A stretch of 64,000 nt of DNA, taken from positions 118,097 through 182,096 of the forward strand of contig JAIFVX010000001.1 in the NCBI GenBank assembly GCA_019659125.1, in the 5' to 3' direction. The notes under the pieces are model-generated. The model saw only the letters and a list, made by a program, of their open reading frames with translations. It was not told where the DNA came from and ran no database searches. Below are positions 7,451 through 39,401 of the stretch, one piece after another. A program made the translations under genes and the position numbers. Numbering within the stretch: the stretch's first letter is position 1; every line of letters starts with the position of its first letter. Origin of the DNA: Candidatus Pacearchaeota archaeon (lineage in GTDB: Archaea; Nanobdellota; Nanobdellia; Pacearchaeales; GW2011-AR1).

Positions 7451-10234
7451 TTATAAACCTTTCTCACTGCTATCCGCGAATTGCTGGAATTTCCTGAATC
7501 TCCATCGCTGGTAGAAATAGAACCCTGCTCCAATCACCAGTGTGCCCATAACTGCTCCTCCAACCCATACGAAAAAGGCATTCTGGGACAGGATACTCTT
7601 TCCCGTAATGTTAGATCTCTGGGAGATAGCCCTCTTGCATGACTCGACAGCTTCATCCAGCTTCGCATCACCTTCCTCAGACTTTCCCTGTGCAATGAGA
7701 CTCTTAGCCTCATCAAGAGTTTCCTTGATCTCCAGACACTCAGGGTTCTGAGCGATCAATGCATCCGTAAGGAGCACTTTATCTTGGATCTTTGTCCCCT
7801 GACCTACAGTAAGCAATATCTTGCCTGAGTCCTGATAAGCAGGATTCTGTACCGTAGCATTCAGAAGGATCTCGTATACACCATCCTCTTCCGTATTGAC
7901 ATCTACGATCAATGTAATATTTTTAGAGGCACCGATAGGAAGAATATTCAAGAATGAATTATCGAATGAGGCAAGCAAATCCTTCCGTAAAGCACCATCC
8001 TTAGATACGGTAGCCCTCACTACAATACCTCGAAGGTCAAGTGCCCCTCTATTAGCCAAAGTAATGGGAAGGATAATCTTCTTGTTCTTCTCAGTTGATA
8101 AAGGATTAGGAAGCAGCAGTTTCAAAAGAATAGGAGTTGATTTAGCAAAATCTCCCGATCCTCCGCCGCCTCCACTATTAGGAATTGGTACATTAGGATC
8201 AGTCGATATAACACCTACTCTGTAGTTGCTCCAGCCAGTTACATTAAAAATGACAGTACCTGCATTCAGGGAAGTAAAGTTATAGCAATAAGTAGCGTTA
8301 CAAGCAATATTATTCTTGAATATCAAAGGAGCGTCAAAGTTTGTAGGGAGGCCATAAAACGTTACATTAGCACTTTGGTTAAGACCCAAGCGATTATCAT
8401 TAACTGTGACCTTATCATTTTCTATCTTTATATCATCAGTTAAGTTATCTGCGCTCTCATTAATTGGCTGCAAAAACCTGATTTCCCCATACTGCGTGTT
8501 CTTGAAATTAACAAATCCCCCAACTCCAGAAAACGAATAACTTTCTACATAACCATCAGTAATAGATAACTGATTAGAAGAATTTAAGTTTAAAACCTGT
8601 AGAGCAGTATCAAAACCCTCATTCCCGCCGATAATCGTGTTATTAAACAGAATATTTCCAGAGGTGTTATTAAGATAAACTCCACCTTCCGAATTATTGG
8701 TTATTATGGAGGAGCTAAGAGTGATATTGGAACTATCTTCTATATAAAAACCAAGATGTTCCAAATTACTGATGAACATAGAGGAAAAATTATTGTTATT
8801 AGAATTATCGATGACAAGCACACCAAAGGTGTTGCGTCCAGCTGTAGTAATACTGCAATTCTGAATGCGATTGTTACCGCTACCTGAAAGTTCAAAACTT
8901 CCCATGCCATCAGAATAGGAACCGATACTTCTACCAGATCCTTCTCCACTTGAACCGATAGTACAATGGGCAATAGTGTTGTTAGAGCTACCTTGCAAAT
9001 AAATGGGGGGATATGCCGTTGTATCTCCAAAATCAGCAGTCACATACTGAAAGACATTGTTTTTACTGTTGACAACGCTTAAGCCTGCTCCAACCTGAAG
9101 AGACGCAACTGTCAAAGAAGTAAATGTATTATTGTCGCTTGAATCGAGATTAACTCTTCCCAAGCTTAGATTAGTAAAGCTATTATTATATTGATTAGTT
9201 AGATCTAAATTTCCATCCGATATTACAGAAATAACTCGGTTATGATTGCCAGTAACAGATAAAAGAGAACTACCTTGCTCTCTAATAAGTGTATCAAGGA
9301 GATTATTAGAGTCAAGAGAAACATACCCGGAAATGTTATAGAGATTATTATTAGATCCTACATTCATTCCGGGACTACTAACTGTAAGGTTGATCATTGT
9401 ATCGTTGATGTTAAAGAAATCAGTAGAAAATGCGAGGTTAGCTATCGTTAAATCTGTAAAATTATTGTTATGACCACTATCGTTAATGTCATTGATAACT
9501 AGAAACTTAGCAAAGATATTATAAGCACTTGCCGAATCGAGAATGATAGAATCTAGAGAACTAGGAGAAAGAATATCGCCAGTGTTATTAGCATCACGAT
9601 TAGTAAAGAAATTATTGGAACTAGAGATCAGTGATATAAGAGGTGACTGCATTGAAGAAAAATTATTTTGGGTGCTTGAATTCAATAAAATTTTTCCAGC
9701 AGAAGAAGTAGTTATATTATACATAGTATTATTATGGCTCCCTAAGAAATAAAAACTATAATTGTCTTGACTCGCATTAATTTTAAGAAATGTGATATTC
9801 GAACTATTTTGGATATAAATGCCGTAACCAGTTTTATTGACAGTGATATTGATAATGCGGGAATTAGTTACATTAAGGAGATTAAGGCCATAACCGGTTG
9901 TAAGAGCCATACTTAGATTACAATTCCTGATGGTAACATTATTAGCATGAGTCACATTGATGGCAGGTCTATTAAGAGTACTGTTAGCGATGATGAAAGA
10001 CCGACAGTTCAATTCAACATTCGAGGCATTAATAAGAAAACATCCTGTAGAATTGACAAGAGACCGGTTAAGGTTCTGCGTCATTGTATAGTTGCCTGCC
10101 GTATCTAACGTCTGACAGGTTGAAACGTCTCCTGGAGTCGAAGCGCTTACCAATGAAAAAGTATCCAACAATAAGAGTACTGCTAATATCCCTGCCAGTA
10201 TCCAAAATAAAAGAAAAATATTCTTAGACGTCAC
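7451..10234 (-). CDS. membrane-anchored surface protein 1: signal peptide, long right-handed beta-helix (PbH1/NosD-like) region, two beta-sandwich-like modules, Cys-bracketed helical hairpin, C-terminal TM
   Basis: 927 aa with a GTG start. Has a signal peptide, many repeats of the type NNVTIRNC/SNITF.., a GGGGGSG linker, a CARDB-like block PITLANRGALDLRGIVVRATV..ITLIVDVNTEEDGVYEILLNATV, then TM and YQRWRF. Very dense in N-x-S/T sequons. Confidence 0.75.
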   Translation of the reverse strand: MTSKNIFLLFWILAGILAVLLLLDTFSLVSASTPGDVSTCQTLDTAGNYTMTQNLNRSLVNSTGCFLINASNVELNCRSFIIANSTLNRPAINVTHANNVTIRNCNLSMALTTGYGLNLLNVTNSRIINITVNKTGYGIYIQNSSNITFLKINASQDNYSFYFLGSHNNTMYNITTSSAGKILLNSSTQNNFSSMQSPLISLISSSNNFFTNRDANNTGDILSPSSLDSIILDSASAYNIFAKFLVINDINDSGHNNNFTDLTIANLAFSTDFFNINDTMINLTVSSPGMNVGSNNNLYNISGYVSLDSNNLLDTLIREQGSSLLSVTGNHNRVISVISDGNLDLTNQYNNSFTNLSLGRVNLDSSDNNTFTSLTVASLQVGAGLSVVNSKNNVFQYVTADFGDTTAYPPIYLQGSSNNTIAHCTIGSSGEGSGRSIGSYSDGMGSFELSGSGNNRIQNCSITTAGRNTFGVLVIDNSNNNNFSSMFISNLEHLGFYIEDSSNITLSSSIITNNSEGGVYLNNTSGNILFNNTIIGGNEGFDTALQVLNLNSSNQLSITDGYVESYSFSGVGGFVNFKNTQYGEIRFLQPINESADNLTDDIKIENDKVTVNDNRLGLNQSANVTFYGLPTNFDAPLIFKNNIACNATYCYNFTSLNAGTVIFNVTGWSNYRVGVISTDPNVPIPNSGGGGGSGDFAKSTPILLKLLLPNPLSTEKNKKIILPITLANRGALDLRGIVVRATVSKDGALRKDLLASFDNSFLNILPIGASKNITLIVDVNTEEDGVYEILLNATVQNPAYQDSGKILLTVGQGTKIQDKVLLTDALIAQNPECLEIKETLDEAKSLIAQGKSEEGDAKLDEAVESCKRAISQRSNITGKSILSQNAFFVWVGGAVMGTLVIGAGFYFYQRWRFRKFQQFADSSEKGL

Positions 10235-10345
10235 CGTAGTTCACGCTCTTTTCCATGATAGAGGTTAGAGAAAAAAGAACTTTATAAGGATTCCGAGAGG
10301 CTAGAAACTAGCAAAGATTATAGTTAATTCCAAGCACTGGCCAGC
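10228..10345. repeat. 118-bp perfect direct repeat, copy 1 (partner 14090-14207)
   Basis: Base-for-base identical to 14090-14207 by hand alignment. Covers the last 12 codons and stop of the dockerin-like gene, the whole 73-nt spacer, and the first codons of the anchored gene. Confidence 0.9.
10280..10287 (-). promoter_or_regulatory. TATA box (TTATAAAG) inside the 118-bp repeat, upstream of anchored gene 1
   Basis: Plus-strand ctttataa. 23 nt lie between the box and the minus-strand ATG at 10256 (mini-ORF). This matches the spacing seen at other leaderless genes in the window. Confidence 0.55.
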
Positions 10346-12002
10346 CGTCTGAGCACTGAGTAACTGAAGTCATGATATTGCCTGAACCTGAGTTAGAATT
10401 ACTACCAAAAGTACATAAGAAGTCTTGAAGATTCGAACAGAATTTGTTATTGTTAACAGAATTTCCTCCACCTGATTCAAGCTGAAGACCTCTATAACCA
10501 TTCTTACTTCCACTGTTACCAGTTATGGTGTTTGTATTAGAGATTATATAAAATCCAGTTTGGTTGTTATTAGTAGCATTATTATTCAAAAGAGAGTTTC
10601 CAGGAGAGGCATAATCGACATAAAATCCTTCGACATTATTGTCATTTGCAGTATTAGAAATAAGATTGTTGTTAGCAGAAGGGGTCGGATCACTAGGGGA
10701 ATATAATTGTAACACAAATCCTCCAACATTGTAGATAATGCTTGATCCAGCATTCCTATTAGCGGTGTTACCTCGAAGGGTATTAGAACTGCTTCCTCGA
10801 AGAAAGAATCCATCAATACGATTGCTGTTGGCAGTTGAGTTGATAATACTATTACCATTACTCTTCTCAAGCAAGAATCCATTCTCACCATTGTTGTTTG
10901 CTGTGGAATTTATAACTTGGTTATTAGAGCTGGTAGAGATAAAGTAAAACCCATTCTTACCATTGTTGTTTGCAAAGTTGTTTCTAAAAATGCTGTTAGA
11001 GACTTTTCCTGATAAAGCGACGCCATACAAAGAGTTACTGTTTACAGTATTGCTGGTAACGGTGGTGTTTGTATTCCAGACGAGACCAATACCTGTTCCC
11101 TTGTTGTTATTAATAACATTGTTGCTCACAACAGTATGATTTCCTCGAACGGATATTCCTTGGTCGTTATTGCTTAAGACGTTGTTAAGAACTTGAGTAT
11201 AGTGAGAATTAGAATCTATACCTACTGCATTGGCCCCATTATTGTTGTTTATATTATTGTTATTAAGTATGGCTTTAGAGGATTGTTGAAGAATTACTCC
11301 AGATCCGCTTCTTGTGAGAGTGTTACCAGATATAAAGGAGTTTTGAGCATTATCAAATTGGATGGCTCCATTGATCATGGAATCGATAACACAGTTCCTA
11401 ACGGTGGCATTCATCACATTTGAAGCAACAACTCCAAAATTATTGCTAGCTCCATTAAATGCACCATTTCGTATAGCATGATTCTGACAGTCAAGCTCGA
11501 CATTTGATGCACTGATTACCATACAAGGACTAGTTGCTGGATCTATATCAGCAGTCAATAGGTATTTAGTGTCGGGTTGATTAAGAGCTGAACATGAAGA
11601 AACAAGTACAACTGCCTGTCCTGCAAGTGCTGAGCCTGTGCATCCAACTGTGTTGAACGCGGCAGCGAGATCAATGAAATCAGATATGCTGGTAGTTCCA
11701 TCCCTGTTGATATCAGTATTGGCACACCAGTTATTTGTTGTGCCGCATCCAACTTCATTAAAGTGAGAACTTACCTCGATATAGTCAGCAATACTGACAG
11801 TTCCATCGTGATTGATGTCAGTGTTATTGCACCAGTTGTCCTTCGTTACAGAAGATTGAATAGTGGAGTCTGTCGCTGATTCAGATTTCTTAGAATTTTT
11901 TGCAGTAGAAATAGCAGTTACGCTTAGGAGCATAACAGCGACTAAGAATATTGATAGCATGAATTTCAGCGCGTTCTTCATAGGAAAATAGTAGAACATC
12001 AA
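10308..12002 (-). CDS. secreted dockerin-like + beta-helix protein 1
   Basis: Signal peptide (likely true start MKNALKF), two segments WCNNTDINHDGTVSIADYIEVSSHFNEVGC and WCANTDINRDGTTSISDFIDLAAAFNTVGC (D-x-N-x-D-G Ca-loop), NosD-like NN.I.NN repeats, and a Cys-rich tail ending WPVLGINYNLC. Confidence 0.75.
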   Translation of the reverse strand: MMFYYFPMKNALKFMLSIFLVAVMLLSVTAISTAKNSKKSESATDSTIQSSVTKDNWCNNTDINHDGTVSIADYIEVSSHFNEVGCGTTNNWCANTDINRDGTTSISDFIDLAAAFNTVGCTGSALAGQAVVLVSSCSALNQPDTKYLLTADIDPATSPCMVISASNVELDCQNHAIRNGAFNGASNNFGVVASNVMNATVRNCVIDSMINGAIQFDNAQNSFISGNTLTRSGSGVILQQSSKAILNNNNINNNNGANAVGIDSNSHYTQVLNNVLSNNDQGISVRGNHTVVSNNVINNNKGTGIGLVWNTNTTVTSNTVNSNSLYGVALSGKVSNSIFRNNFANNNGKNGFYFISTSSNNQVINSTANNNGENGFLLEKSNGNSIINSTANSNRIDGFFLRGSSSNTLRGNTANRNAGSSIIYNVGGFVLQLYSPSDPTPSANNNLISNTANDNNVEGFYVDYASPGNSLLNNNATNNNQTGFYIISNTNTITGNSGSKNGYRGLQLESGGGNSVNNNKFCSNLQDFLCTFGSNSNSGSGNIMTSVTQCSDGWPVLGINYNLC

Positions 12003-12038
12003 TATATAAATGTTTCTGTGACCACTAAGTAATGAAAA

Positions 12039-14096
12039 CTAAGACTCAATTGCCTTTTGGAATCGCCAACGCTGATAGCTATAGAAGCCAATACCTACCA
12101 CAAATGCTCCGAGAATGGCCACTCCAACCCATATAAAGAAAGTACTAGGAGTGAAAGAATTTCTTCGCTGGCTGCTTACCTTTTGGGAAATTGAGTTCTT
12201 GCATCCTTGAATTGCCTCATCAAGTTTCGCCTGCCCTTGCTGCTCTTTTCCATCGGAAAGTAGTTGTTGGGCCTCATCAAGCGTTTCCTTGATCTCTAAG
12301 CACTCATGATTATTGGCAATCAGCTGTGCAGCAAGAAGCACTTTAGCTTGTGTTTGTGTCCCTTGCCCTACTGTTAAAAATATCTTAGCAAAATCCTGAT
12401 AGAATGGATCCCTGACGCTAGCATTGAGCAGGATTTCATAAACACCTTCCTCTTCAGTATTAACATCAACGGTCAAAGTAATGTTCTGTGACTTTCCTAT
12501 AGGCAATATATCTATTGATGATGTGTCAAACGAGGTAACTAAATCCTTTCGTAAAGCCCCATTTTTAGCGACGGCTGCCTTGACGACGATGCCATTGAGT
12601 GCCACTGATCCTTTATTCTCAAGTCGAATTGGTAGTACTAGTCTGCCATTCTTTGCAGATGAAACAGGGTCAGGAAGCAGTAATTTCAGCAATACGGGCC
12701 GTATTATCAATGATCCTCCGCCACTTCCTCCACCAGAGCTTCCAGGTAGAGTGAGCAAAGAAACAACACTCACCCTATAGGAACCATATCCTGTAATATT
12801 AAAGCTGACATTACCTACATTCAACGAAGTAGAATTAAAGCACCCTTGAGCTGTTCCGCAAGCGATATCATTCTTGAATATCAAAGGATTATCAAAATTA
12901 GTGGCAAGGTTATAAAGAGAGATATTCGCGGTTCTATTGAAACGTAGATCACTTATGATCGTAATCTTATTACTCTCAATCTTAACATCATTGCTTAAGT
13001 TTGTTCCCGAGCCATTGATCGTCTGTAAAAACCTCACCGATCCATACTTAGAATTTATGAATCTTGCAATAACTTCTCCTAAGAATCTATAATCTGCCAC
13101 TAAGCTATCAGTAACGTTTATACTAAGAGGGCTAAAAGAAATATTATTGTCAAAAATATATGTATAATTGGACCATCTTAAATGTAGCCCTGAACCTGAA
13201 ATATTGATAATAGAATTGTTAGATATGGTAGTATTAACACTTTTTTCAACATAGATACCTGCTTCCGTGCCGTTGTATATAAAATTGTTAAAAACAGTCA
13301 TATTATTACCTGTTAAAAAAACCCCTCGCAAAAAACTATTATTAATAAAGTTATTAGCCAAATAAGCATTATTAGCGCTGGATACAAGAATACCCATACG
13401 TTGCGAAACAACAGTATTATCGTAAATAGTAGTGTTAATACCGTAATCGTTTCCTCCAACAACAATAGCATCACCAAACGTAGTATTCTTAACAGTATTA
13501 TGAGATATAATTATGTTGTTACAGGTATCTACACTCACGCCATTAAATAATGATCCAATGATGATGTTGCCAAGAATAGTTATATTACTACCATCAATGA
13601 CAGAAATTCCATTAAAGGTGTGATTGAAAAAAACATTGTTACTAATAGTAACATTGTTAGAAGACGTAATTACAACTCCATTACTATTAGATGAGAACGT
13701 ATTGTTTGTTATAAGTGTATTATTGTCAGAACTAATTTGGAGGGCAGTAGTTGAACTTCCCAGAGTGATATTGCAGTTTCGTACGGTAAGATTAGTAATT
13801 TCATCTCCAATTATCGCAGGCTGAGGATTTGCATTCGTAGTATTATAAATGGAAAATCCCTTACAATTTAACTCTACGTTAGAAGCACTAACCAAAAAAC
13901 AAGAGCCAGATATTTCATCATCAAACACAGTAAGGCTTTTGTTCATAGTATAAACTCCTGATATGTTAAGCTCCTGGCAAAACGAAACATTTCCAGGAAC
14001 AGAAGCACTAACAAGAGATAAAGTATCGAAAGAAAACACTACTACAAATACTCCTATCAATACTAAAAACAAGAGAAATATGTTCCTAAACGTCAC
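12039..14096 (-). CDS. membrane-anchored surface protein 2 (paralog of 7451-10234)
   Basis: 685 aa with a GTG start and the same architecture. The N-terminus MTFRNIFLLF.. and the C-terminal ~330 aa align with paralog 1. The beta-helix core is shorter and diverged. Confidence 0.75.
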   Translation of the reverse strand: MTFRNIFLLFLVLIGVFVVVFSFDTLSLVSASVPGNVSFCQELNISGVYTMNKSLTVFDDEISGSCFLVSASNVELNCKGFSIYNTTNANPQPAIIGDEITNLTVRNCNITLGSSTTALQISSDNNTLITNNTFSSNSNGVVITSSNNVTISNNVFFNHTFNGISVIDGSNITILGNIIIGSLFNGVSVDTCNNIIISHNTVKNTTFGDAIVVGGNDYGINTTIYDNTVVSQRMGILVSSANNAYLANNFINNSFLRGVFLTGNNMTVFNNFIYNGTEAGIYVEKSVNTTISNNSIINISGSGLHLRWSNYTYIFDNNISFSPLSINVTDSLVADYRFLGEVIARFINSKYGSVRFLQTINGSGTNLSNDVKIESNKITIISDLRFNRTANISLYNLATNFDNPLIFKNDIACGTAQGCFNSTSLNVGNVSFNITGYGSYRVSVVSLLTLPGSSGGGSGGGSLIIRPVLLKLLLPDPVSSAKNGRLVLPIRLENKGSVALNGIVVKAAVAKNGALRKDLVTSFDTSSIDILPIGKSQNITLTVDVNTEEEGVYEILLNASVRDPFYQDFAKIFLTVGQGTQTQAKVLLAAQLIANNHECLEIKETLDEAQQLLSDGKEQQGQAKLDEAIQGCKNSISQKVSSQRRNSFTPSTFFIWVGVAILGAFVVGIGFYSYQRWRFQKAIES

Positions 14097-14207
14097 CGTA
14101 GTTCACGCTCTTTTCCATGATAGAGGTTAGAGAAAAAAGAACTTTATAAGGATTCCGAGAGGCTAGAAACTAGCAAAGATTATAGTTAATTCCAAGCACT
14201 GGCCAGC
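14090..14207. repeat. 118-bp perfect direct repeat, copy 2
   Basis: Identical to 10228-10345. Confidence 0.9.
14142..14149 (-). promoter_or_regulatory. TATA box (TTATAAAG) inside repeat copy 2, upstream of anchored gene 2
   Basis: Same sequence and spacing as 10280-10287. Confidence 0.55.
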
Positions 14208-15423
14208 TTTCTGTTGAACATAAAGTAACTGTAGTCATTTTATTTCCAGTTCCAGACGTTCCTAGAGAAGAGAAAAAGCATATATAATCATCACCAGTAG
14301 GGGAACAAATCTTATTATTAGAAACCACATTGTTAACGACCCGTGCAACCTGGAATCCTCGAATCCAACTATTAGTAATATTATTGTCTGAAAATGTATT
14401 GTAAGAGGAGCCCTGAGTTACAATCCCGTATCGATCATTATTCAAAGAATTACTCTTAATGGTGTTATAGCTAATGTCGTTGATAGACATACCTACAGCT
14501 CCATTATTGATAACATTGTTGGAAATAGTACTGTTCGTAAGATTGGTAACGCTTAATCCGATCCAATCCAAATTTAATAAATTATTAACAACGGTGAGGT
14601 TATTGGCAGGGTAGACGGGACCACCCTCTTCTTCAGTATACGAGATGGATATAGCTTGAGAATTATTAAGAAGAACATTCTTTGCTATGATGGTGTTTGA
14701 AGTTCCCATGACCTGAATTCCTTCAACATTGTTAAAAATAGTATTATTGATGACAATTGAATTGTCTGCACCATAAAGGCTGATTGCCCGATGAGTTCCA
14801 CCAACACCATATTCGATATCGTTTACGGAAGAAAGCTTACAGTTTCGAATAACTGTATGAGGTGAACCAGAAGTGATAAGATCATAGGCATGCGGTAAAT
14901 CATTGACAATACTGTGTCCCTGGCAGTCAATCTCTACATCGTGAACATCAACAATAAGACAATACTCACCATCTAAAGGCTGGGAAACATCAGATGTTAG
15001 AACATATTTTGTATTGGACTGCTCAAGACGCATACATGAAGAGATAGGAACAATTGATTGGCTTGAAACCGGCGCTTGGCAGCCAACCTTGTTAAAGTTA
15101 GCTGATACGTCAATGAAGTCACTAATGCTAGTCGTGCCGTCATGGTTAATGTCCGTGTTAGAGCACCAATCGTTTCCAATACTGCATCCAACTTCATTAA
15201 AGTGAGAACTTACCTCGATATAGTCGGCAATACTGACAGTACCATCGTGATTGATGTCAGTGTTATTGCACCAGTTATCGACGCTCGTGGCACTAATAGC
15301 GACAGAGGTCGTTGATGCAGTTTTCTTAGAGGATTTAGCAGTTGAGAGAGCAGTTACAGAAAGTAATAAAGCAGCAACTAGAAATACTGATAGAATAACT
15401 TTCATCGTGCTTTTCATACGCAT
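14170..15423 (-). CDS. secreted dockerin-like + beta-helix protein 2 (paralog of 10308-12002)
   Basis: 417 aa. Has a signal peptide, the same two Cys-bracketed NTDINHDGT.SI.D.I motifs, a shorter beta-helix and an identical WPVLGINYNLC end. Confidence 0.75.
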   Translation of the reverse strand: MRMKSTMKVILSVFLVAALLLSVTALSTAKSSKKTASTTSVAISATSVDNWCNNTDINHDGTVSIADYIEVSSHFNEVGCSIGNDWCSNTDINHDGTTSISDFIDVSANFNKVGCQAPVSSQSIVPISSCMRLEQSNTKYVLTSDVSQPLDGEYCLIVDVHDVEIDCQGHSIVNDLPHAYDLITSGSPHTVIRNCKLSSVNDIEYGVGGTHRAISLYGADNSIVINNTIFNNVEGIQVMGTSNTIIAKNVLLNNSQAISISYTEEEGGPVYPANNLTVVNNLLNLDWIGLSVTNLTNSTISNNVINNGAVGMSINDISYNTIKSNSLNNDRYGIVTQGSSYNTFSDNNITNSWIRGFQVARVVNNVVSNNKICSPTGDDYICFFSSLGTSGTGNKMTTVTLCSTESWPVLGINYNLC

Positions 15424-15493
15424 TTATTAAAAACTCAATATATAAATGTTTCCGTAACCACTAGAAAAGAGAAACAGTATTACGCCGTAGTAA

Positions 15494-16451: not shown

Positions 16452-16862
16452 TTACAATTTCCAAAAAGAGGATTTCTGTGTCGGCGGCAAAGCCTGTTGC
16501 TTACGTTGGACAAACTCCCTATGGAAAACATCAATGTTTTCCTCGCACACATAATCATGCTGCCTGAACCCTCCACCAAAAGTCTTAGGGATATGCATGA
16601 GCTCGTGGATGATAACTTTATCCTGGTCAACTTTGCTCATACGATCAAATCGCTCGAGAAACTCTATGGCGTAAAATGCCCTGACACCCATGGCTCTCTG
16701 CATCAACTTTCCCATGGTATGACATCGGGCAATGGTTCTTTTCGTTGAAGATCCAAAACTGCGAAGGCACTTGACTCGTGAAAGATCAATATGTAGCATG
16801 CCTAAAGTCTTCACTATATCAATCGTTCGTTCTTGTAAATCTGGGGCTTCTTCATATTTCAT
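16452..16862 (-). CDS. predicted Zn-metallopeptidase (HExxH)
   Basis: 136 aa with VIIHELMHIPKTFGGGFRQH. Resembles the small archaeal predicted metallopeptidases (COG4900-like). Confidence 0.55.
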   Translation of the reverse strand: MKYEEAPDLQERTIDIVKTLGMLHIDLSRVKCLRSFGSSTKRTIARCHTMGKLMQRAMGVRAFYAIEFLERFDRMSKVDQDKVIIHELMHIPKTFGGGFRQHDYVCEENIDVFHREFVQRKQQALPPTQKSSFWKL

Positions 16863-37300: not shown

Positions 37301-39401
37301 CGTTTGCAAGCTGGAAATCATCAGTAAATGTGGCATTGAAGGATGTTGCATTGCTGCCCACCGTCGTTCCATTGGTGGGAGCATTTAAGTTGCTAGCAGG
37401 AGGTGTTGTGTCAGAAGACGCAATAGTAATCGTCACATTTCTTAATTCAGTCTGGTTCTTGTTTCCCGATGTGTCAACTGCATAGGCGGTGAACGCATGA
37501 GAAGCAGCAGGCAAAGAAGTAAAATTATTAGTATATTGAGTAGCCGTTGCATCGTATAATGCTCCAATTTCTGTATTGTTCAAGCTTCTATTGAAGACAA
37601 TCACCTCATCAAGGGATCCGTTCCATGCGTTGCCCGCAGAACAGAATGAAGGTGTCCTGCAGCCAATGCCCATGCCATCGCTTGGAGGGCCGTTGAACTG
37701 GTCAAAGACTGCAGGATTGAATGCAGTAGAAGTTTGATAAACATTTCCCGTACTATTACGTAGATTACATACGATGCTGCTTCCTTCATAGGTAAGAGCA
37801 AAGGACAAGGCACCCATCTCGAAGATATAGACCGTTCCAGAGGCAGAAGGCTGCCTGTTCAGCCACAAGGATGCGGTAAAGCCTTCGCCCTCATTACGAA
37901 GCAAGGGATAGGAGGGAAGGGAAATGATGCTGCTATTGCCGTCAAAGGTGAAGGATGCGTTGAACTTTCCTGATGCATTCTGGAATGCCCTGCTCGAATT
38001 GCTTGCGTTGGTGCTGTAGCTTGATGAGTCAATAATTCCATTCGTGCTGTTGATGTCGTCCATCCTGAGCCATAGTTTTACCGTTCTATCAAAGTCAACA
38101 AACGTATAATGAGTGCTTGCGTCAGTGCTTGACACATTCACATAGATGCTTGTTGCGGTCTGTGAAGAGCCATTCGATGCTGTAGGGCTTGTGAAATTGA
38201 TAGCAGGAGGAGTGGTGTCATTAGTATTAACGGCGGATGTTGTCAGATTGAACTGAAAAGTTCCTGAAAAGTTCATGCTTCCCGTTGCATTGGTCGCGTT
38301 GACCGCCCAATATTTAATTCCCAGGGTGTGATTGTAATAATTAACAATCTCTGATGTTGATAGGCTCCTGTTGAAGATGACTATATCTGCAATCGTTCCG
38401 TTGAACGATCCGGTGATGAGACCTGCGGTGTTATATGACTGACCTATGCCTACTTTCATCGTCCCTCCCGCAATGTTAGGAGTCGAGCCGGCAATACTCC
38501 TATTTCCATCAAGAATTCCATCAAGATAGACAGAAGCATATGACCAGTTCTGAACAACATACACTACATGATGCCAGACGTTAGTAGTTACTGGAGTCGC
38601 TCCGTAGACAGGAGCATTCTGACTTAACCCTGCTCCCCCATTGGAGTTATTCTCAAAATCACCAAGAAGAACTCGGTTAGTTGAATTAATAGCGACGAAG
38701 AAATGGACGTCAGCTGCAGAGGATTCGGCCTCCGCCACTCCCTTGGTAATGATGGGATATCCCGTTGCTCCACCATTTCCAGTGTTTGCCGTTGATCCAT
38801 TTCCCACCATATAAATCCACGCCATGACAGTATACGAAGCCATATCAAATACGCCGGAATCTGCAACGCTCGCGTTTCGTTTTGATGCGACTCCATCAAG
38901 CGTGATTCCCCATCCAAAAGGCATGCTGTCATTGAACACCATGCTGCTGGTAAAGGTCGCGTTGTTGTCCGCGCCTGCAAAGTCATAGGCAAGTGTCTGA
39001 TTTTCCCCAGATCCTGACTGATTGTCAAGATGAAGAAGCAAGACTGTGTTGCTCGTTTTAGTAGGAAGAGGTGCAGTCCAGTTGATAGCAAATGTTGCAT
39101 TCCCTACGCTCATGTTGAAGTAAATAAGGCTTGTCCAAAGATTGGAAGCATTGTCAGTTGCATACACCCAAACGTTACTTGAATTTCCAATGGTAAAGTT
39201 AAGAACAACCGTTGGAAAGGTAACAACATTGCTGTTGTTCGCAGGAGAATTGATAACGATTTGAGGTGGATCTCCTGCTGCAAGAACAATAGCAATGAAA
39301 GCAAGAAGTACTCCCAAGACAACAACAAAAACACCCAGCCTATGCACATCCTGCGTGCTACTCTTCACACTATACCATAGGCCTCTTTTTGTACCTTTCA
39401 T
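31356..39401 (-). CDS. giant (2681 aa) membrane-anchored surface protein: 3 LamG/ConA-like modules, 6 copies of a ~95-aa Ig-like repeat, embedded metallophosphoesterase, further Ig-like modules, Ser/Gly linker, C-terminal TM
   Basis: Single uninterrupted ORF with an N-terminal TM/signal. LamG-like regions lie at ~38276-39059, ~37555-38085 and ~35895-36600. Phosphoesterase motifs are PDTQ, GDVV, GNHD, TTHG and GHTPGEAH. Linker SSSGSGSSGSSGSGSGAGAGAA, then TM ILVWTSFVVIALMILTSV. Confidence 0.85.
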   Translation of the reverse strand: MKGTKRGLWYSVKSSTQDVHRLGVFVVVLGVLLAFIAIVLAAGDPPQIVINSPANNSNVVTFPTVVLNFTIGNSSNVWVYATDNASNLWTSLIYFNMSVGNATFAINWTAPLPTKTSNTVLLLHLDNQSGSGENQTLAYDFAGADNNATFTSSMVFNDSMPFGWGITLDGVASKRNASVADSGVFDMASYTVMAWIYMVGNGSTANTGNGGATGYPIITKGVAEAESSAADVHFFVAINSTNRVLLGDFENNSNGGAGLSQNAPVYGATPVTTNVWHHVVYVVQNWSYASVYLDGILDGNRSIAGSTPNIAGGTMKVGIGQSYNTAGLITGSFNGTIADIVIFNRSLSTSEIVNYYNHTLGIKYWAVNATNATGSMNFSGTFQFNLTTSAVNTNDTTPPAINFTSPTASNGSSQTATSIYVNVSSTDASTHYTFVDFDRTVKLWLRMDDINSTNGIIDSSSYSTNASNSSRAFQNASGKFNASFTFDGNSSIISLPSYPLLRNEGEGFTASLWLNRQPSASGTVYIFEMGALSFALTYEGSSIVCNLRNSTGNVYQTSTAFNPAVFDQFNGPPSDGMGIGCRTPSFCSAGNAWNGSLDEVIVFNRSLNNTEIGALYDATATQYTNNFTSLPAASHAFTAYAVDTSGNKNQTELRNVTITIASSDTTPPASNLNAPTNGTTVGSNATSFNATFTDDFQLANATFYIWNSTSLVNTTSIGFNGTSNASNITFVLPRGGTYFWNYLAYDNSSNSAFNATNFTLIFDTASPLVTINSPANQTYSSSPIIFNVSLSEAGLCQYSLNAGVTNYTMQSNSNVTFNASNSSIADGSYTARFYCNDTVNNFNRTASVTFALNTSIVFALSLNAPANASLITGNLSALLQWTPESLGSTVETFIYVNSNYSLMDDSLVYHGLRDTPNQMLSYNWSVPVTGRNESGLTVLLHMDNLSRFGENASIVMDYSLLNSVAQQNASCGTGCPVFNPTGRIAGALEFNATQNLFIANQGELSNTTEYTIMGWFNMTSNGTTANTGTGGAFLIPLVTKGMAEAELNSQDFPYFVGIRGDYKLTADYENITNSVNHLAIGSTTLNFSTWYHFAAKKNSSGLYIYLNGALEGSNLSATSAPTFSSTSRIGIGVAYLSTGTANGAFNGLLDEIAIYNTSLSDSQIMNHYNLSLQKYYWKVNISNSTTTLAKEREFTFFASTDTTPPAINLNAPTNGTTISSNATSFNATFSDNTQLANATFYIWNSTSLVNTTFRGFNGTNNATNITFVLPRFDTYYWNYQAYDNSSNSAFNATNFTVIFTTVDTNPPNVTINSPAQNATNQLTSTTLNVSVVDNSQGNITVRFFGRNITNGRIENFTFVLVPDTQFYAESFPLTFTNQTTWIRENTAALNIKFVISLGDVVQNTETESEWDRANASYNVLDQNNSPYIINVGNHDKLLGNYTNFRNYFGAPRYSFRSWWGNNQSINNSNSYMTMDNVAGEDLIFLSLEFCPWGETIVWANDTLKNYSNKLAVVTTHGFLDGSGNRNVGSAEGGCAGGTNTQYIWDGVINTNNNTFLVTSGHTPGEAHRNDTSLGGKMVWQLMHDYQGRTLGGQGWLNYMIIDPTTNRFNLYTINANNLSFETDADSQYSGSLGFDWAGGDNGTYYEIGNISVANGTSASVVWSSLVPNGTYEWYASATDSDGQQTNSSVYNFTVMAILNDSTVPVVNLNAPANGSTVSSNSTSFNATFSDDYQLRNATFYIWNSTSLVNTTFRGFNGTSNASNITFVLPRTDIYYWNYLAYDNSSNSAFNRTNFTLIFAVSDTSVPSVNLNAPANGSTVLTNATSFNATFTDDYQLRNATFYIWNATTLVNTTFRGINGTSNASNITFVLPRIDTYYWNYQVYDNSSNGAFNSSNFTVIFSVADITAPSVNLNAPSNGTTVTTNSTSFNASFSDDYQLSNATFFIWNATSLVNTTFRGINGTNNATNITFVLPRFDTYFWNYKVFDNSSNGAFNATNFTLIFAAADTTAPVANLLAPPNNTIVTSSTVFFAANFTDNSQLANATLVLYNSTGSLISTNITTVTGTSNSSNLSLILSAQGRWFWNYQIVDSSSNRAYNSSNYTITLDSVIPGVTINIPANITYNNASFNFNVSLNEQGTVLFSLNGGATNYTMGSTNNQSFNYTNSSIRDGSYTFKVYANDSAGNRNDTTSVVFSIDTTVPAVTIDVPQNTTYTSSSFTFNVTLNENGTVLYTLNAGLTNYSMSSSDGLHFNASNSSIGQGSFTFKVWVNDSVGNRNDTTQTTFFVDSLTPGIEYVSPTDTNGSSSTRRFILINVTGNDTNLANITISLFNTTSLVNRTLKTLSPNFVNISVAADGIYYFNATIVDTVGNVNSTNTRTFIIDTAAPLINLTAPDNGKNYSGGQAISFQYTVSDIIIQNCSLTVNSTVIDSSSSISTSATNTFTDSLGVGFYTWNISCLDSVLNSNISATRVFNITASSSGSGSSGSSGSGSGAGAGAAVSSPVTYIANTSDLSDGYNQSLRINDRINFSRGLVNHTVIVNDIKESTVNVTIFSSPINLILHEGDRVKLNFTSPDYYDIMVEVLDIIASRAVIKVQEIPHDLIPHEAAPEPEVEPTINISVSHPRLIPDISEHSILVWTSFVVIALMILTSVRLFYERRAWMHGRYIKHHILYRPKDFYIKRD
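33095..34310 (-). repeat. four tandem ~95-aa coding repeats (..NLNAP.NG(S/T)TV..N.TSFNA(T/S)F.DDYQL.NATF(Y/F)IWN.T.LVNTTFRG.NGT.NA.NITFVLPR.D.Y(Y/F)WNY..(Y/F)DNSSN.AFN..NFT.IF)
   Basis: Read directly from the translation. Boundaries are at ~34310, ~34010, ~33705, ~33400 and ~33095. The fourth copy is degenerate. Two more copies lie at ~35505-35815 and ~37115-37420. Confidence 0.8.
34560..35345 (-). other. calcineurin-like metallophosphoesterase domain inside the giant protein
   Basis: FTFVLVPDTQFY (35311-35322 encodes PDTQ), ISLGDVVQN, INVGNHDK (~35094-35111), AVVTTHGF, and TSGHTPGEAH (~34701-34730). Confidence 0.75.

Follow-up and report, generated by a model that had tools for sequence, protein, structure and literature searches.

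Ectopic gene conversion and concerted evolution are known from prokaryotic paralogs, the classic case being tufA and tufB of Salmonella, and both subjects are said to be covered by a review that Santoyo and Romero published in 2005. In conversion of the tufA/tufB type, non-reciprocal recombination keeps one segment identical while the remainder diverges, and the event is recognised by a run of identity longer than the divergence of the flanks would allow, together with homogenised silent sites. The locus described here appears to be of the same kind and is recognised by the same signs, but its tract is very short (118 bp), lies over a gene–gene junction rather than within one gene and belongs to a DPANN archaeon equipped with RadA rather than RecA. 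In archaea, Archibald and Roger reportedly detected gene conversion among chaperonin (thermosome) paralogs in 2002 from phylogenetic incongruence across many species; the present case shares with those paralogs archaeal mosaic segments homogenised within a genome, but its tract is known from two copies in one genome. The process that we propose is clean but familiar and does not reveal a new mechanism.

A closer parallel for the size of the tract comes from Sulfolobus acidocaldarius, in which homologous recombination transfers short and discontinuous tracts (Mao & Grogan, 2012; PMC3367456). Short-patch recombination as described there is compatible with the mismatch-bounded tract of ~100 nt found here, although that work is a transformation experiment in a crenarchaeon, whereas here a natural event between chromosomal paralogs is inferred.

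Two tandem surface-protein cassettes

The window (the whole stretch of 64,000 nucleotides that was analysed, from the genome of a tiny, symbiont-type archaeon of the Pacearchaeota) contains two tandem two-gene cassettes for surface proteins. Their genes follow one another in the order D–C–B–A and, in correction of a preliminary description of this DNA, all of them lie on the minus strand:

7451-10234, minus strand: gene A, membrane-anchored beta-helix protein with a GTG start, an N-terminal signal and a C-terminal transmembrane segment
10308-11981, minus strand: gene B, secreted protein with Pfam matches to Dockerin_1, Beta_helix and NosD
12039-14096, minus strand: gene C, paralog of A by sequence comparison, GTG start
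14170-15417, minus strand: gene D, paralog of B by sequence comparison, with a shorter beta-helix

The product of gene B comprises a signal peptide, two dockerin-like EF-hand repeats, a NosD/right-handed beta-helix and a Cys-containing C-terminal cap; the database version of this protein has 557 amino acids. The gene is likely to start at ATG 11981 rather than at TTG 12002, a choice supported by the presence of TTTATATA at the canonical position −29 from this ATG, and ATG 15417 is likewise the probable start of gene D, judging from the TATA spacing. Amino-acid identity between A and C is 55% over the C-terminal 360 residues and 44% over the first 150, and between B and D it is 42–45%. All four products combine conserved ends with highly variable beta-helix middles that are unalignable as DNA. 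The neighbours within ~5 kb encode the MoxR, DUF58 and BatA/vWA proteins (downstream of gene A), an Obg-like GTPase, a metallopeptidase-like protein and two proteins with no domain match.

A genome of the same genus (G001) carries one cassette with the same synteny. Its single ortholog forms an unresolved trichotomy with A and C, with branch lengths of 0.41 for A, 0.31 for C and 0.20 for the ortholog, and this three-way split with long branches indicates that the cassette duplication and the genus-level split are of similar age. The junction in G001 has a TATA box of its own, a leader of ~20 nt and no mini-ORF, and it is not homologous as DNA to the block described below. Searching 60 relatives with the junction DNA yielded nothing beyond chance matches of ~20 nt, and neither an exact 29-mer from the spacer nor a degenerate pattern for WPVLGINYNLC* was found in public genome and metagenome contig collections. 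Apart from B and the G001 protein, a protein search with gene D recovered only one unrelated dockerin protein, and no closer strain. Another genome of the family (G309) has two copies of the anchored gene 3.6 kb apart, in a different gene order and with no comparable block.

The 118-bp block and its contents

Both cassettes carry the same sequence at the boundary between their two genes:

10228-10345, minus strand: copy 1 of the block, at the junction of genes B and A; exact match to copy 2, bounds from the MAFFT profile
14090-14207, minus strand: copy 2 of the block, at the junction of genes D and C; exact match to copy 1, bounds from the MAFFT profile

The preliminary description had aligned these segments by hand and called them identical base for base, and all 118 of 118 positions are indeed equal. 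The block occurs in these two copies only in the whole 808,890-bp assembly, and 100 shuffles gave no match to it. The copies form a direct repeat with a spacing of 3,862 bp; their palindrome content amounts to 5 bp and they are devoid of the repeat architecture typical of recombinase sites. A mobile element was considered and rejected, since the block occurs just twice and lacks terminal repeats.

The sliding identity profile that had been proposed as a check, computed here with MAFFT, is sharply bounded. Identity stops no more than 1–2 nt past either edge of the block, with mismatches at positions 10227 and 10225 beyond one edge and 10346-10347 beyond the other. Over 146 alignable columns the identity of the flanks is 67.8%, the earlier estimate by eye having been 60–75%. 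The drop is immediate and not spread over a few dozen nucleotides. Farther out, past ~100 nt on the A/C side or 37 nt on the B/D side, the DNA can hardly be aligned at all (~45% identity). A recent duplication of the whole cassette, which would have left identity without such limits, is thus contradicted by the sharp bounds. In a Sawyer-type runs test, in which the mismatches were permuted 20,000 times, permuted runs reached at most 65 in the junction segment and 41 when all alignable segments were included, whereas the observed run is 118, and the probability of a 118-nt run calculated from the flank identity is ~1e-20.

The following elements were recognised within the block or across its edge:

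10311-10343 (copy 2, 14173-14205), minus strand: codons for WPVLGINYNLC, the end of the C-terminal cap module, from translation
10280-10287 (copy 2, 14142-14149), minus strand: TTATAAAG, putative TATA box for the anchored gene, with A-rich BRE-like bases before it, read from sequence
10271-10276 (copy 2, 14133-14138), minus strand: T6 tract, downstream of the TATA box and ahead of the predicted transcription start, read from sequence
10224-10256 (copy 2, 14086-14118), minus strand: mini-ORF MEKSVNYGDV* of 10 codons, read from sequence

The TTATAAAG box and the mini-ORF had been reported before, as had the complete 73-nt spacer that holds them and the first codons of the anchored gene, into which the block extends as far as GTG ACG T; all of these are present as described. 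At the other end, the claim of the last 12 codons and the stop of the dockerin-like gene holds for the stop, but the block contains only 11 full codons and 2 nt of the twelfth. The cap module of B and D, GxGNxF/MxxVxxCxxxWP[VI]L..[ND]Y..C, is conserved at their C-termini, and its motif ends or recurs within beta-helix proteins of other genera in the family.

The T6 tract may represent an oligo-T terminator of the upstream gene, oligo-T termination being a mode of transcription termination in archaea. The TTATAAA within the block stands at −31 from the ATG of the mini-ORF and at −53 from the GTG; elsewhere in the genome this motif peaks at −28 before leaderless ATGs, with 46 cases there and at most two at adjacent positions. 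The genome-wide register places the predicted transcription start at the A at 10259 (14121 in copy 2), from which leaders of 3 nt to the mini-ORF ATG and of ~25 nt to the GTG are predicted. An ATG 3 nt past the predicted start is an offset seen in just three of the 140 in-frame leaderless genes.

The mini-ORF runs out of frame across the GTG start of gene A and ends with TAG in copy 2 and TAA in copy 1; under the conversion proposed below it would be `conserved' between the copies only because of that conversion, which calls for caution in annotation. In both copies a +1 frameshift is possible on paper, as the reading frame of the anchored gene continues after the mini-ORF stop. A fusion of the mini-ORF to the anchored gene by this route was not adopted, given that there is no slippery site and that the G001 gene has a plain leader and a GTG. 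No RNA structure is predicted in the block (both strands fold more weakly than their shuffles, with z = +1.28 and +1.03), and an Rfam search of the junction gave no credible family, the only match being a sub-threshold one to STnc150 outside the block. As both the Rfam search and the fold scores were negative, a structured-RNA reading was rejected.

Silent sites, a second patch and probable gene conversion

Outside the near-identical patches, 200 of 464 codon pairs that specify the same amino acid are themselves identical (43%) and synonymous sites are saturated. Within the block, all ten degenerate codons (10/10) and all 73 non-coding nucleotides (73/73) are identical; against an expectation of 43%, ten identical codons out of ten have a probability of ~2e-4. 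Comparison of B with D revealed a further stretch of this kind:

11745-11837 (partner in D, 15184-15276), minus strand: second near-identical patch, in the first dockerin-like repeat of B; 93 nt with two mismatches

Its exact runs measure 35 and 42 nt, and 28 of its 30 same-amino-acid codons are identical, compared with the 43% background, while the codons of the second dockerin repeat, which is as conserved as the first, have diverged. The 93-nt patch would represent a second and slightly older conversion patch, and it supports gene conversion at this locus. Exact blocks of 113, 87, 53, 49 and 45 bp are embedded in other diverged paralogs of the genome, which also encodes RadA (a Rad51-family match of 294.8 bits) and a second, RadB-like paralog.

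These observations lead us to propose, with a probability of roughly 80%, that the block was left by a recent short-tract ectopic gene conversion between old tandem paralogous cassettes. Ongoing or recent conversion had been one of three explanations put forward in the preliminary description and it is well supported by silent sites that are homogenised inside the block and saturated outside it, by the second patch, by the blocks in other paralogs and by the presence of RadA. A heteroduplex would have been seeded at the sole stretch in which the two junctions were still alike, made up of the codons for the conserved B/D cap, the A/C promoter and start and the signal-peptide codons. The tract would then have been resolved within ~118 nt, halted at the mismatch clusters on either side, so that by non-reciprocal homologous recombination one junction, whichever served as the recipient, was overwritten by the other. 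The outcome would be that A and C share an identical putative terminator, a putative BRE/TATA promoter, a predicted leader of ~25 nt with its mini-ORF and a GTG start.

Other explanations and implications

Purifying selection might by itself hold all 118 nucleotides if overlapping functions left no site free. The block is dense in candidate signals, with a cap motif shared across genera, a putative TATA box with BRE-like bases that would fit the register of the genome, the T6 tract, the mini-ORF and the GTG, and the two substitutions just past its edge keep the Val and the stop of the mini-ORF while changing residues of the main ORF. Both of these changes, however, are transitions that would in any case be silent in the mini-ORF, and the ten identical synonymous sites exceed the 43% expectation. 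The promoters of B and D provide an internal control for what selection at the level of a promoter looks like, through their conserved core:

11999-12027 (partner in D, 15435-15463), minus strand: conserved core of the B promoter, TAGTGGTyACrGAAACATTTATATATTGA, from alignment

This core is identical at 27 of 29 positions with an exact run of 18 nt, and in the stretch from core to ATG only nine of 17 nucleotides agree, whereas in the block the spacers from stop to BRE and from TATA box to start are 100% identical. Since conservation in the B/D promoters is limited to a 29-nt core with two mismatches, selection alone is insufficient. Nor does the block have a predicted RNA structure or an Rfam family, and there is no conservation in the one same-genus genome, the G001 junction having its own TATA box and no mini-ORF, or any DNA match among the 60 relatives. 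The very strong regulatory selection invoked earlier cannot alone yield 118 of 118; as a sole cause it is already largely refuted, and we regard it as very improbable. Gene conversion and selection are nevertheless compatible and not mutually exclusive, and selection on the dense functional elements may have helped to fix or retain the converted tract. An artefact of assembly or polishing, with junctions that are not truly identical or a tandem joined chimerically from two strain variants, has to be considered for a metagenome-assembled draft of five contigs with 139-bp overlaps at their ends. Overlaps of exactly 139 bp point to an assembly k of ~140, however, and the block, at 118 bp, is shorter than this graph overlap, so that k-mers anchored in the unique, 68%-identical flanks would bridge each junction. 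Divergence beside identity is not something that assemblers create, the joint between C and B (12003-12038) offers no shared sequence at which two strains could be chimerised, and the regions upstream of B and D differ. With the block below the apparent k of the assembler, collapse or duplication during assembly is highly unlikely to account for it.

The third explanation put forward earlier makes the block a specialised site of crossover, at which secreted and anchored partners are re-paired (for example D with A) or the number of cassettes is altered; this would give a host-dependent archaeon a source of surface variation. The placement of the block exactly at the two-gene boundary of each cassette, the direct repeat, the conserved ends and variable middles of the surface-protein genes and the homologous recombination genes in the genome would all suit such a role. 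Against it, no recombinase or integrase is found among the neighbouring genes (~5 kb), the block has no recombinase-type repeats, the single cassette of G001 has an unrelated junction, the block is absent from G309 with its two anchored genes, and the assembly contains no chimeric or alternative contigs. Shuffling at this site thus gained no positive support and we consider it improbable. Still unlikely, though slightly less so, is the idea that the junction block is maintained as an expression-and-exchange module, which combines co-regulation of A and C, mini-ORF-dependent translation of the anchor and a crossover point. An identical unit of terminator, promoter, mini-ORF and GUG start would then co-regulate the two anchored paralogs, the anchor would be translated by termination-reinitiation after a near-leaderless 10-codon mini-ORF, and secreted (dockerin) and anchored partners would be re-paired or amplified, providing a simple combinatorial variation of the host-contact surface in a DPANN archaeon.

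If gene conversion is indeed responsible, then paralogous genes for surface proteins undergo active homologous recombination in the reduced genome of a DPANN (Pacearchaeota) archaeon, and conversion can homogenise a whole gene–gene junction, so that the genes for two anchored proteins that diverged long ago come to share one promoter, leader and start. The resulting 118-bp direct repeat could serve as a passive substrate for unequal crossing-over, with deletion or amplification of the C+B unit. The annotation of the locus also gains from the analysis, with probable corrected starts for B and D and a promoter prediction for A and C.

Anatomy and extent of the identity block

The four genes share the minus strand and run D, C, B, A, and gene A is followed by genes for MoxR (AAA_3), DUF58 and BatA/vWA proteins. 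The EF-hand repeats of B and D match Pfam Dockerin_1, while A and C share a conserved C-terminal region of ~330 residues.

Features of the two cassettes (D+C and B+A)
15417..14170, minus strand: gene D; signal peptide, two dockerin-like EF-hand repeats, NosD/right-handed β-helix
14096..12039, minus strand: gene C; N-terminal signal, β-helix, C-terminal transmembrane helix
11981..10308, minus strand: gene B; signal peptide, two dockerin-like EF-hand repeats, NosD/right-handed β-helix
10234..7451, minus strand: gene A; N-terminal signal, β-helix, C-terminal transmembrane helix
11999-12027 (B) and 15435-15463 (D), minus strand: promoter core TAGTGGTyACrGAAACATTTATATATTGA; 29 nt, 2 mismatches
11745-11837 (B) and 15184-15276 (D), minus strand: second patch, first dockerin-like repeat; 93 nt, 2 mismatches

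The segments at the B–A junction (10228-10345) and the D–C junction (14090-14207) are identical at 118 of 118 positions, as the preliminary description had claimed, and the sequence occurs nowhere else in the 808,890 bp, five-contig assembly (the window is C1:118097-182096). Aligning 1 kb around each copy with MAFFT, the step that set the block boundaries, gives 100% identity inside, with the first mismatches at 10227 and 10225 beyond one edge and at 10346-10347 beyond the other. An identity of 60–83% then persists for ~100 nt toward A/C and ~37 nt toward B/D, and farther out the sequences are unalignable (~45%); over the 146 flank columns that can be aligned, identity is 67.8%. The identity is therefore sharply bounded and the flanks are diverged as described, but the gradual fall to ~60–75% within a few dozen nucleotides was not reproduced, the drop being immediate. 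Permuting the mismatches 20,000 times produced no run longer than 65 for the junction segment or 41 for all three alignable segments, placing the observed 118 far beyond chance.

Read along the minus strand, the block comprises 2 nt of a Gly/Ser codon, the codons for WPVLGINYNLC, TAG, 20 nt with a 5 bp palindrome, TTATAAAG, 23 nt with a T6 run and finally ATG GAA AAG AGC GTG AAC TAC G followed by GTG ACG T. The stop codon, 73 nt spacer and first codons of the anchored gene are thus as reported, but the secreted gene contributes 11 codons plus 2 nt rather than 12 full codons. The TTATAAAG box and mini-ORF attributed to the spacer are present in both copies. The latter (MEKSVNYGDV*), opened by the ATG above, ends just outside the block, with TAA in copy 1 and TAG in copy 2, in an out-of-frame overlap with codons 3–4 of A and C.

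Age of the cassettes and origin of the identity

Both cassettes are old. Amino-acid identity between A and C is 55% over the C-terminal 360 residues and 44% over the first 150; between B (557 residues) and D (415 residues) it is 42–45%, with β-helices of greatly different length. Tandem 69–72 nt units (23–24-residue coils, 61–72% identity) in the B β-helix (10807-11001) suggest that much of this difference reflects coil expansion. Outside the patches, the same codon is used in 200 of 464 (43%) aligned pairs for the same degenerate amino acid, indicating saturated synonymous sites. A single cassette, in the same synteny, is present in the same-genus genome G001 (313-residue gene, 645-residue secreted protein, 912-residue anchored protein, MoxR, DUF58, vWA), and a maximum-likelihood tree of the C-terminal domain leaves A, C and the G001 protein as an unresolved trichotomy (branches 0.41, 0.31 and 0.20). 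Dockerin domain order is swapped between these close relatives: the repeats directly follow the signal peptide in B and D, whereas in the G001 secreted partner (L031, G001:C28, 6193-8130) both are C-terminal, after the β-helix and an A/C-like module.

The best explanation is a recent gene conversion over a short tract between the old tandem paralogs; it was one of the options originally raised, and we assign it a probability of about 0.8. Silent sites are homogenized, and the second patch has 28 of 30 codons identical; the second dockerin repeat shows equal protein-level conservation between B and D, but its codons have diverged. Other diverged paralogs or internal repeats across the genome contain embedded exact blocks (113, 87, 53, 49 and 45 bp) that show the same profile, and the genome encodes RadA together with a RadB-like paralog. 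Recombination experiments in archaea are reported to yield short tracts bounded by mismatches (PMC3367456). Conversion between the two junctions would have been seeded where the C-terminal cap motif GxGNxF/MxxVxxCxxxWP[VI]L..[ND]Y..C, conserved at the protein level across genera either terminally or as an internal repeat, kept the region sufficiently similar. The block would represent a new example of a well known process, here in a DPANN archaeon and spanning a gene–gene junction.

Very strong selection on a regulatory element, also proposed originally, is not enough on its own to keep the block identical. Conservation of the cap motif does not account for identical codons: all 10 degenerate codons inside the block agree (expected 0.43^10, about 2e-4), as do 73 of 73 spacer nucleotides. 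The B/D promoters, an internal control from the same cassettes, are conserved only in the 29 nt core, with 9 of 17 nt identical between core and ATG. RNA structure was predicted on neither strand of the block (z = +1.28 and +1.03), and an Rfam search gave no credible match. At the G001 junction there is a separate TATA box, a ~20 nt leader and a GTG start, but neither homologous DNA nor a mini-ORF; no DNA match to the block was found among 60 relatives, and judging from these genomes it is not conserved between species. An assembly artefact appears unlikely. Overlaps at contig ends measure exactly 139 bp, a pattern typical of de Bruijn graph assembly with k near 140, so that k-mers anchored in the unique, 68%-identical flanks would bridge each 118 bp junction, and the C-to-B joint contains no shared sequence able to chimerize two strains. 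As to cassette shuffling, no recombinase is encoded nearby, the block lacks recombinase-type repeat architecture, the assembly contains no chimeric contigs and nothing comparable to the block occurs in a family genome that has two copies of the anchored gene; even so, the 118 bp direct repeat is a passive substrate on which unequal crossing-over may act.

The ~50-residue tail with Cys residues that ends B and D (GxGNxFxxVxxCxxxWP[VI]L..[ND]Y..C) also occurs in other genera (L034, L035, L038 and L039; genomes G367, G197, G144 and G335), where it caps the C-terminus of β-helix proteins and, within single proteins of G195 and G197, forms an internal module repeated 2–3 times. Just upstream of the cassettes, a 136-residue protein (16452-16862, minus strand) matches the Pfam family 'Putative phage metallopeptidase' (PF18894, 1e-18).

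Promoters and the mini-ORF

Genome-wide, TTATAAA starts 28 nt before leaderless ATGs in 46 cases, with at most two at neighbouring offsets; promoters carry A-rich bases at -36 to -32 and show no Shine–Dalgarno-like G enrichment. This regularity suggests that leaderless mRNAs are the norm, and the 28 nt register favours ATG 11981 and ATG 15417 as the starts of B and D over longer ORF starts. Within the block, TTATAAA lies 31 nt upstream of the mini-ORF ATG, predicting transcription from A 10259 (14121 in copy 2), 3 nt ahead of that ATG and 25 nt ahead of the GTG. Since an ATG at +3 is rare (3 of 140 in-frame leaderless genes) and ~15 out-of-frame mini-ORFs occur at predicted starts genome-wide, the mini-ORF may be incidental; that both cassettes carry it unchanged is a consequence of the conversion and adds no independent support for a function. 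The T6 run is a putative terminator of the B/D transcripts, and GTGGTnAC, conserved upstream of BRE/TATA in the B/D core, could be a transcription-factor site.

Contig overlaps and further repeats

The 139 bp overlaps join the end of C1 to the start of C3, the end of C3 to the start of C5 and the end of C2 to the start of C4, and the start of C2 overlaps the reverse complement of C1 around 1086; C1:1-123 is repeated at C1:1102. The contigs can probably be ordered along the assembly graph. An exact 139 bp repeat, equal in length to the assembler's overlap, links 37569-37707 (C1:155665), in a 2681-residue surface giant, to C1:237742, in a paralog 82 kb away, and further inverted matches of 121–125 bp occur near C1:397000. 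Here the assembly may be ambiguous, or further conversion may have taken place.
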